DNA from: Escherichia coli
GTDB lineage: Bacteria > Pseudomonadota > Gammaproteobacteria > Enterobacterales > Enterobacteriaceae
NCBI RefSeq assembly: GCF_003334355.1
Contig: NZ_QOWP01000007.1
Reading direction: 5' to 3' (one strand)
DNA length: 64,000 bases
Shown here one piece after another: positions 8,398-9,360 of the stretch (the stretch's first letter is position 1; each line of letters opens with the position of its first letter). A program made the translations under genes and the position numbers. The notes beneath the pieces were generated by a model that was not told the DNA's origin, ran no database searches, and saw only the letters and a list, made by a program, of their open reading frames with translations.

Positions 8398-8420
8398 ATT
8401 AAGGATGTTGTAACTAAAGT
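8398..8420 (+). other. Tus-binding replication terminus site (TerB-like) in the tus promoter region
   Basis: Sequence attaaggatGTTGTAACTAaagt contains the invariant Ter core GTTGTAACTA, about 10 nt upstream of the tus start codon. Confidence 0.85.
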
Positions 8421-8430
8421 GGTTAATATT

Positions 8431-9360
8431 ATGGCGCGTTACGATCTCGTAGACCGACTCAACACTACTTTTCGCCAGATGGAACAAGAGCTGGCTGCAT
8501 TTGCCGCTCATCTTGAGCAACACAAGCTATTGGTTGCCCGCGTGTTCTCTTTGCCGGAGGTAAAAAAAGAGGATGAGCATAATCCGCTTAATCGTATTGA
8601 GGTAAAACAACATCTCGGCAACGACGCGCAGTCGCTGGCGTTGCGTCATTTCCGCCATTTATTTATTCAACAACAGTCCGAAAATCGCAGCAGCAAGGCC
8701 GCTGTCCGTCTGCCTGGCGTGTTGTGTTACCAGGTCGATAACCTTTCGCAAGCAGCGTTGGTCAGTCATATTCAGCACATCAATAAACTCAAGACCACGT
8801 TCGAGCATATCGTCACGGTTGAATCAGAACTCCCCACCGCGGCACGTTTTGAATGGGTGCATCGTCATTTGCCGGGGCTGATCACCCTTAATGCTTACCG
8901 CACGCTCACCGTTCTGCACGACCCCGCCACTTTACGTTTTGGCTGGGCTAATAAACATATCATTAAAAATTTGCATCGTGATGAAGTCCTGGCACAGCTG
9001 GAAAAAAGCCTGAAATCACCACGCAGTGTCGCACCGTGGACGCGCGAGGAGTGGCAAAGAAAACTGGAGCGAGAGTATCAGGATATCGCTGCCCTGCCAC
9101 AGAACGCGAAGTTAAAAATCAAACGTCCGGTGAAGGTGCAGCCGATTGCCCGCGTCTGGTACAAAGGAGATCAAAAACAAGTACAACACGCTTGCCCTAC
9201 ACCGCTTATTGCGCTGATTAATCGGGATAATGGCGCGGGCGTGCCGGATGTTGGGGAGTTGTTAAATTACGATGCCGACAATGTGCAACACCGTTATAAA
9301 CCACAGGCGCAGCCGCTTCGTTTGATCATTCCCCGGCTGCACCTGTATGTTGCGGATTAA
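8431..9360 (+). CDS. tus: DNA replication terminus site-binding protein Tus
   Basis: ORF track 8419..9360; recognised start [10 protein letters not shown] is 4 codons in, giving 309 aa. Confidence 0.96.

Follow-up and report, generated by a model that had tools for sequence, protein, structure and literature searches.

The locus analyzed here lies in a 64,000-nucleotide (64-kb) stretch of Escherichia coli DNA from contig NZ_QOWP01000007.1, called the window throughout. It comprises tus, the gene of the replication terminator protein Tus, the Tus-binding site TerB immediately upstream of it, and fumC, which converges on tus from the opposite strand. The principal features, among them an RNA stem-loop encoded inside the 3' end of tus, are as follows (nt, nucleotides; bp, base pairs; CDS, coding sequence; ORF, open reading frame).

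8398..8420, plus strand: TerB, the 23-bp Tus-binding site ATTAAGGATGTTGTAACTAAAGT, with G6 at 8403 and its non-permissive face on the low-coordinate side
8407..8416, plus strand: Ter core GTTGTAACTA, the sole exact copy in the window
8431..9360, plus strand: tus CDS, 309 amino acids and stop (ORF, K-12 and RefSeq annotation, matches to 1ECR and PF05472)
9303..9346, minus strand: stem-loop of the fumC-sense RNA, 12-13 bp, beginning 11 nt after the fumC stop and followed by GGUUUAUAACG
9357..9360, both strands: TTAA common to the convergent ends of tus and fumC, a 4-nt CDS overlap
9357..10760, minus strand: fumC CDS, class II fumarate hydratase (ORF and annotation)

The product of the gene at 8431..9360 matches the Pfam family PF05472 (Ter) over residues 9-306 (E = 4.6e-137) and the crystallised Tus protein (PDB 1ECR) over 309/309 residues (E = 7.8e-208), and it is 99.7% identical to K-12 Tus. 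Judged by its sequence, this gene is tus, and the 23 bp at 8398..8420 represent the form of TerB carried by this E. coli strain. The start codon is ATG 8431 in RefSeq and in the crystallised protein, and not the in-frame GTG at 8419..8421 (Ter positions 22-23 plus the next base), which lies four codons before the ATG and gives a 313-amino-acid ORF.

The tus reading frame ends with GCG GAT TAA, the TAA occupying 9358..9360, whereas the stop of fumC is read from the complementary strand at 9357..9359. The two CDSs thus overlap by 4 nt while their stop codons share 2 bp, in line with the overlap within TTAA described in the initial annotation. K-12 is annotated with the same overlap (tus, b1610, 1684259..1685188; fumC, b1611, 1685185..1686588), which is also identical in 8/8 other E. 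coli strains compared. Furthermore, the gap between the two CDSs was collected from 80 species-level Tus loci, 79 of which have fumC as the convergent neighbor; together with the window and K-12, these make 81 loci. The gap is -4 in 48 of them, 0 in 18, -11 in 11, -14 in one, +10 in two, and +35 in one, so that the genes abut or overlap in 78/81. The absence of an intergenic region is, on this comparison, a trait of the whole family and no quirk of the strain. Because the CDSs overlap, neither gene can have an intergenic terminator and an overlap of the transcripts is unavoidable. The claim that there is no room for a terminator accordingly stands for the intergenic space but fails for the locus, since a terminator-like stem-loop lies inside the last ~20 codons of tus.

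The location of TerB in the tus promoter, the autoregulation of Tus (1991-92), and the tus/fumC overlap are already known. The embedded fumC stem-loop, on the other hand, is apparently an undescribed detail and the sole new information reported here. It was not found in the searchable literature, older subscription papers on fumC and tus being beyond reach, and no priority is claimed for it.

A stem-loop of the fumC-sense RNA within tus

The minus-strand RNA at 9303..9346 reads CAGGUGCAGCCG-N18-CGGCUGCGCCUG, then UGGUUUAUAACG. The arms correspond to 9334..9345 (Tus codons 302-305, RLHL) and 9304..9315 (codons 292-295, QAQP) and enclose an 18-nt loop. The minimum free energy of a 77-nt segment is -33 kcal/mol for the fumC-sense strand (z = -4.1) versus -25.8 kcal/mol for the tus-sense strand (z = -2.8). 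The locus was compared in 82 sequences, namely 80 Enterobacteriaceae species, the window, and K-12. Essentially every one of the 80 species has the hairpin, and the hairpin segment has a mean of -24.9 kcal/mol over 80 distinct sequences. Across the 13 pairs of the 82-sequence alignment, 94.3% of the cells hold standard pairs, and six pairs are changed on both sides among these related sequences. As a control of the pairing, 0/500 shuffles attain any of five measures, and slid registers are 19-46% paired. Moreover, RNAalifold recovers the inner 7 bp unguided. A search of Rfam gave no family match over 8300..9600 even at E <= 1.

The codons of the two arms stand in frame with each other, the pairs joining either a second with a second codon position, which never varies, or a first with a third. 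Synonymous choice within the arms is restricted. Relative to gene-wide usage, the entropy of codon choice is 0.35 and 0.44 in the two arms versus a gene mean of 0.85, and the arms rank first and second for synonymous constraint among the 222 four-codon windows of tus, while the six loop codons are unconstrained (codon-choice test, Mann-Whitney p = 5e-6). The case of Arg302 illustrates this restriction: it is encoded by CGG in 60/82 sequences and by CGA in 15/82, yet CGT and CGC make up 71% of the Arg codons in tus genes, and Arg288, thirteen codons off, is CGT or CGC in 74/82. The codon for residue 295 covaries with codon 302, in the combinations CCG/CGG (57), CCG/CGA (10), TCG/CGA (5), ACG/CGT (1), and GCG/CGC (1). 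Further joint changes couple Q292E with CTG>CTC (five cases) and CAA294 with TTG303 (two cases).

The strand on which the structure matters can be approached through the same alignment. Read as minus-strand RNA, 131 of the non-Watson-Crick pairs are G-U (51 without the invariant U-G pair), versus 14 as plus-strand RNA, and in 74/80 distinct sequences the hairpin of the minus strand has the greater stability. Furthermore, the four-fold degenerate third positions in the arms are occupied by G or A and almost never by C or T, a restriction that preserves pairing solely with G on the fumC-sense strand. These observations favor a selection of the hairpin acting on the fumC-sense (minus) RNA.

One locus among the 80 has a partner other than fumC. 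In Klebsiella indica (locus L065, 3499..4875), the convergent neighbor of tus is a gene for a transporter of the major facilitator superfamily type, set apart by a 65-nt gap. The embedded helix of this species keeps its inner 8 bp, including a compensatory A-U pair, and has two A-C mismatches at its base.

Fate of the fumC transcript

The initial annotation anticipated that convergent transcripts would read into the partner gene, and published K-12 data bear this out. Indeed, tus-fumC is one of 165 convergent MG1655 "excludons" that recur in half or more of 58 RNA-seq samples (PMC12288877), and a bicyclomycin-sensitive Rho region, with a Rho score of 5.6 and a significance of 5.8e-7, lies antisense in tus at minus-strand position 1,684,895 (PMC7815308, supplement 2). 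The latter coordinate was transferred to the window by equating K-12 1685185 with 9357, tus having no indels between the two. Three features bear on the ends of the two transcripts.

9067, minus strand: equivalent of the K-12 Rho region 1,684,895, 290 nt past the fumC stop and ~240 nt beyond the stem
9217..9300, minus strand: C-rich, G-poor stretch 3' of the stem-loop, a candidate Rho utilization (rut) site (from composition)
9436..9487, plus strand: weak terminator-like hairpin with U6 in the tus-sense RNA, inside fumC (from a relaxed scan)

We propose that transcription of fumC and of fumA-fumC continues into the 3' end of tus, where the transcripts would meet the 12-13-bp stem-loop 11 nt past the fumC stop and then 80-100 nt of C-rich sequence, with C/G ratios of 1.25-1.86 (80-nt windows, offsets 41-120 from the stop). 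Rho would then terminate the transcripts within ~300 nt. The stem-loop probably defines or protects the fumC 3' end: it most likely marks the mature end and shields it from 3'-5' exonucleases, and it may itself cause some termination. Such an arrangement resembles the class described by Dar and Sorek in 2018 (PMC6061677), in which, according to that report, stable stem-loops devoid of a U tract protect the 3' ends of Rho-terminated mRNAs and the rut site lies just downstream. The fumC element shares with this class, as it is presented there, the stable stem, the poor U tract, the C-rich, G-poor stretch just downstream, and Rho acting further on. It differs in being located wholly inside the CDS of a convergent gene, whose codons it constrains. 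Compared with an intrinsic terminator, it has the GC-rich stem and lacks a U-rich tract directly after it. Protection by the stem-loop combined with termination by Rho is the reading that we rank as most likely, and a weak intrinsic terminator is its main rival. Taken as a whole, the account in which the window carries tus with a TerB allele, Tus autoregulates through this site, and the fumC 3' end is formed by the stem-loop together with Rho appears to us very probable.

More distant tus loci suggest how the element could have arisen. In one of them (L093, with a Tus that is 47% identical), tus and fumC converge across a 74-nt spacer, whose fumC strand carries a canonical terminator made of GCCATCTCATTTAAGATGGC and a run of seven U; the Tus of this locus keeps IPRLHLY in other codons and has KSKA at 292-295, and no embedded hairpin is found. 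A second (L098, Tus 43%) has a spacer with AACGGAGCC...GGCTCCGUUUUU and again no embedded hairpin. In a third (L097, Tus 51%), a stable intergenic hairpin directly follows fumC and the embedded one exists in no more than a weakened form, and in a fourth (L091, Tus 58%), a canonical bidirectional terminator comes right after the tus stop and the embedded helix is degenerate. In two further loci (L094 and L095, Tus 36-37%), tus does not adjoin fumC, and there is no hairpin. This distribution fits a course of events in which a hairpin, composed of the ancient RLHL codons and a reshaped 292-295 segment, took the place of the fumC terminator in the spacer.

Several points weigh against the proposal. 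The tail nGGUUUAUA holds 3-4 U in its best 8-nt window in 74/80 sequences, and the loop is large, at 16-18 nt. The covariation counts come from related sequences and do not represent independent events, and the outgroups amount to 3-4 loci only, some of them from error-prone assemblies. The K-12 Term-seq tables, which cover three growth conditions (PMC7815308), contain no 3' end for fumC or tus and list none at 1,684,900-1,685,299. The main gap in the proposal is thus that no Term-seq end within ~250 nt of the fumC stop matches the mature end suggested at the stem-loop. The rut assignment at 9217..9300 is a weak one, drawn from base composition alone. Lastly, on the side of autoregulation, a consensus promoter scan called no promoter at tus, its rule demanding a T at position 6 of the -10 element.

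The main rival holds that the embedded stem-loop works as a terminator independently of Rho, that most fumC transcription ends at ~9295..9303, and that Rho is a backstop further downstream. The helix is indeed stable and GC-rich, and only 11 nt separate it from the stop codon. UUUAUA comes after the helix, and the preference of Tyr289 for TAT (43/48) keeps the tail A/U-rich. Furthermore, the outgroups possess canonical intrinsic terminators at the equivalent position. On the other hand, the U tract is short and set off from the stem by nGG, the loop spans 16-18 nt, and the terminator scan did not call the stem-loop. In K-12, bicyclomycin-sensitive read-through occurs downstream, and the Term-seq tables list no end there (PMC7815308). 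Considering both sides, we hold a predominantly intrinsic terminator to be unlikely.

A second rival regards the overlap mainly as a regulatory excludon, in which tus expression would fall whenever SoxRS or iron limitation induces fumC, through transcriptional interference or through RNase III cutting the duplex of the two RNAs, with no dedicated element at the 3' end. The presence of tus-fumC in the MG1655 excludome, in at least 50% of the 58 RNA-seq samples (PMC12288877), and the preservation of overlap or abutment in 78/81 loci speak for it. However, no reciprocal-expression data were found for tus-fumC, and the stem-loop and the Rho region restrict the antisense RNA to about the final third of tus. 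As a full explanation, this one seems to us quite unlikely, and it is in any case compatible with protection by the stem-loop plus Rho, not exclusive of it. The pair resembles the convergent excludons gathered with ExcludonFinder (PMC12288877) in being convergent with overlapping transcripts. It differs from them in having, on the side of fumC, a conserved RNA structure that sets a limit to the overlap.

A third rival explains the hairpin as a by-product of coding or codon constraint on the Tus C-terminus, or has it function at the level of the DNA or of the tus mRNA. The conservation of RLHL at the protein level reaches far beyond the Enterobacteriaceae, the four pairs between second codon positions never vary because the amino acids fix them, and the plus-strand version folds too (at the -25.8 kcal/mol and z = -2.8 given above). 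However, distant tus genes encode RLHL as CGA TTA CAT CTC or AGA CTT CAT TTG, other codons that have no complementary partner. Synonymous diversity in the arms is 0.35-0.44 of what is expected, compared with 0.85 for the gene as a whole, whereas the loop codons are free, and the rare Arg codons CGG and CGA are retained and covary with residue 295. As for a role in the tus mRNA, the third positions tolerate G>A but not pyrimidines, and the minus-strand RNA is the more stable one in 74/80 sequences. We consider this set of explanations very unlikely.

On the opposite strand, the tus transcript, which would be weak because of autorepression, presumably ends by Rho or by collision inside fumC. The hairpin with U6 at 9436..9487 was rejected as a conserved tus terminator: its fold is not kept across the 80 species, and the last 70 codons of fumC are without synonymous constraint. 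In the relaxed scan and in the fold and codon tests, no dedicated conserved termination element was found for the tus transcript. The consensus terminator scan returned a single terminator-like site, which lies inside rstB (8288..8300).

If the proposal is right, the fumC stem-loop is a clear case in which the structure of one transcript restricts not only synonymous sites but also amino acids in the gene encoded opposite to it. It would be of interest to specialists of replication termination and of RNA 3' ends, without changing either field.

The TerB allele, the tus promoter, and fork polarity

The TerB and TerC sequences used for comparison were taken directly from the K-12 genome record, and that of TerA from published text. 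The Ter core GTTGTAACTA is expected by chance in ~0.12 exact copies (128,000 positions / 4^10) and is observed once; with one mismatch allowed, the 64-kb window contains three matches versus 2.4 expected. The 10-mer core alone is therefore weak evidence, and what decides the assignment is the 21/23 match to K-12 TerB (AATAAGTATGTTGTAACTAAAGT, 1,684,226..1,684,248) at the syntenic position. The initial annotation placed the site about 10 nt upstream of the tus start codon, a distance that is right for the 23-mer (10 nt to the ATG at 8431) and wrong for the core (14 nt). In K-12, the spacing between TerB and tus is given as 11 bp (PMC8707476), and in 77/82 sequences of the comparison set, Ter lies 6-10 nt before the tus start codon.

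The two flank differences from TerB noted in the initial annotation are real: relative to K-12, position 2 is changed from A to T and position 7 from T to G. The guess of strain variation also proved sound. Indeed, when a 48-nt query containing the window allele was compared with 5,426 complete E. coli genomes, ~1,130 of them, O157:H7 and unrelated strains among them, shared the same 45-48 nt at >=99% identity, and K-12 TerC (ATATAGGATGTTGTAACTAATAT) has T2 and G7, the same bases as the window TerB. The "two mismatches" thus make up a common natural TerB allele. Other alleles begin with AATAAGG (ABU 83972, ECONIH1, SC418) or ATAAAGT (WCHEC040047, CFSAN061768).

The 82 tus-vicinal sites show which positions tolerate change. 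Positions 5, 6, and 8-19 are invariant in all of them. In the window, these correspond to A5 at 8402, to G6 at 8403, and to the 8-19 core ATGTTGTAACTA, which is exact at 8405..8416. Position 7 is T in 75 sites, G in five, and C in two, and variation is free at positions 1-4 and 20-23. Other Escherichia species, too, have G7 upstream of tus. The base pair GC(6) is described as the one broken when the Tus-Ter lock forms (PMC8707476), and the window allele leaves it untouched, together with every other position known or seen to matter. A2T and T7G are, by this comparison, a strain polymorphism. They should leave Ter function unimpaired, because both changes sit at positions variable in the family and are common natural variants. 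That the site is a degenerate pseudo-Ter without productive Tus binding and the whole arrangement a relic is extremely unlikely: although 2/23 positions are unlike the K-12 reference and the catalogued TerF, H, I, and J are now seen as pseudo-Ter sites through single core changes (PMC8707476), both substitutions here fall outside the invariant positions, both bases occur in K-12 TerC, and the allele is carried by about a fifth of complete E. coli genomes, O157:H7 included, with G7 also in other Escherichia.

The site overlaps the putative tus promoter, whose elements were read by eye.

8370..8375, plus strand: candidate -35 element TGGTCA, with a 17-nt spacer to the -10 element
8390..8398, plus strand: extended -10 element TGcTATAAA, its last base being Ter position 1 (arrangement conserved)

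These hexamers and the start site are inferred. Among the 82 sequences, the layout seen most often is a TGnTATAnn motif that extends 1-2 nt into Ter; Klebsiella and Raoultella differ in having TATAGT 8-9 nt upstream of Ter. A perfect TTGACA hexamer is also present at 8352..8357, overlapping the rstB stop (TGA 8353..8355), where K-12 has CTGACA. It is probably no promoter, as no suitably spaced -10 element was seen.

As established for this system, Tus bound to TerB would occlude its own promoter and so exert negative autoregulation. For K-12, the location of TerB in or overlapping the tus promoter and the autoregulation of Tus through it, both set out in the initial annotation, are attributed to Roecklein 1991 and Roecklein and Kuempel 1992, as cited in PMC8347550 and PMC8707476. 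The window agrees with the K-12 TerB-tus locus in gene order, spacing, Ter orientation, -10 element, and 4-nt overlap, and differs by A2T, T7G, and a few synonymous or upstream single-nucleotide polymorphisms. With K-12 TerC, the window TerB shares the core, the plus-strand orientation, T2, and G7; TerC differs in lying in the yneE-uxaB intergenic region, away from tus, and at positions 3-4 and 21-23. Among the vicinal Ter sites of Enterobacterales, grouped into type I and type II fork traps in PMC8707476, the window site is one more member and shows no difference in kind.

TerB in the tus promoter represents a standard case of a terminator protein regulating itself through its fork-arrest site. 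The rtp gene of Bacillus subtilis is comparable in that a terminator-protein gene adjoins its own binding site and is autoregulated through it. It differs in that the protein and the DNA site are unrelated to Tus and Ter and rely on dimer-dimer cooperativity, not on a C6 lock.

Regarding polarity, the strand relation of TerB to tus is the same as in K-12, and its strand is that of K-12 TerC. Under the polarity rule stated for Ter orientation (PMC8707476), Tus on this TerB is expected to arrest forks arriving from the G6 side, that is, forks heading to higher window coordinates, as K-12 TerB and TerC do. This is the orientation expected of a site that stops forks on their way out of the terminus region. 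The plus-strand GC skew is negative over the whole window, which fits a routine replication by the fork coming from the right and passing TerB on its permissive side.

This orientation raises the question of transcription from the fumarase side. Tus blocks RNA polymerase with the same polarity as it blocks forks (Mohanty 1996/1998; Guajardo and Sousa 1999), and a polymerase that reaches the complex at its permissive face is reported to displace Tus and thereby to abolish the arrest of forks (Mohanty et al. 1996/1998), both as summarised in PMC2095818. We therefore tentatively suggest that the stem-loop and Rho inside tus may insulate TerB, which lies ~0.9 kb downstream and presents its permissive face, from fumA-fumC transcription. 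Halting this transcription inside tus would, speculatively, protect both fork arrest and autorepression. The same suggestion includes the idea that selection on the antisense RNA shaped Tus codons 292-295 (QAQP) to complement RLHL when the spacer and its terminator were lost in Enterobacteriaceae. The two ideas taken together are possible, if on the unlikely side. If true, they would tie the integrity of Tus-TerB to fumarase transcription and to its induction by oxidative stress and iron limitation.

Neighboring genes and other observations

In the ORF listing, the gene order of this segment is rstA-rstB-tus-fumC-fumA, the class I fumarase being the fifth ORF. The genes that flank tus and fumC are the following.

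6271..7050: rstA (ORF listing)
7054..8355: rstB (ORF listing)
10903..12549, minus strand: fumA, class I fumarase (ORF listing)

The order and spacing from rstA to fumA agree with the RefSeq annotation of E. coli O157:H7 PV15-279 and of K-12 MG1655. The first 24 kb of the window (bases 1-24 kb) are 100% identical to E. coli strain PSS-12 and to several others. The 3' end of tus has two sites unlike O157:H7 PV15-279 and is the same as in a pig isolate. An O157:H7 origin, to which the first matches pointed, was rejected because of this tus end and because the 24-kb identity is to non-O157 strains such as PSS-12.

The region upstream of TerB is altered in some strains. In E. coli ABU 83972 (NC_017631.1, locus L003), the rstB gene upstream of TerB is annotated as a partial pseudogene without its N-terminus. 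In E. coli KTa005 (NZ_CP147084.1, locus L009, 1..1160), rstB is replaced by an element of the ISEcp1 family, the end of which lies ~60 nt upstream of TerB. Native sequence restarts there at GGTCAAG, the candidate tus -35 element, and TerB, tus, and the fumC overlap are all intact. Of 5,424 matches to the rstB-TerB-tus junction, one is on a record labelled plasmid and not chromosome.

A second convergent pair is found 3.5 kb upstream, where folM (plus strand, ending at 5870) and ydgC (minus strand, ending at 5867) share the same TTAA overlap (cgTTAAtg) at 5867..5870. The folM-ydgC pair is also in the MG1655 excludon list (PMC12288877), and a Rho termination region at 1,681,110 on the minus strand lies antisense in folM (PMC7815308). 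Elsewhere in the window, the small RNA STnc550 (RF02081) gives a full-length Rfam match at 61506..61896 on the minus strand, with 396 bits versus a gathering score of 48.

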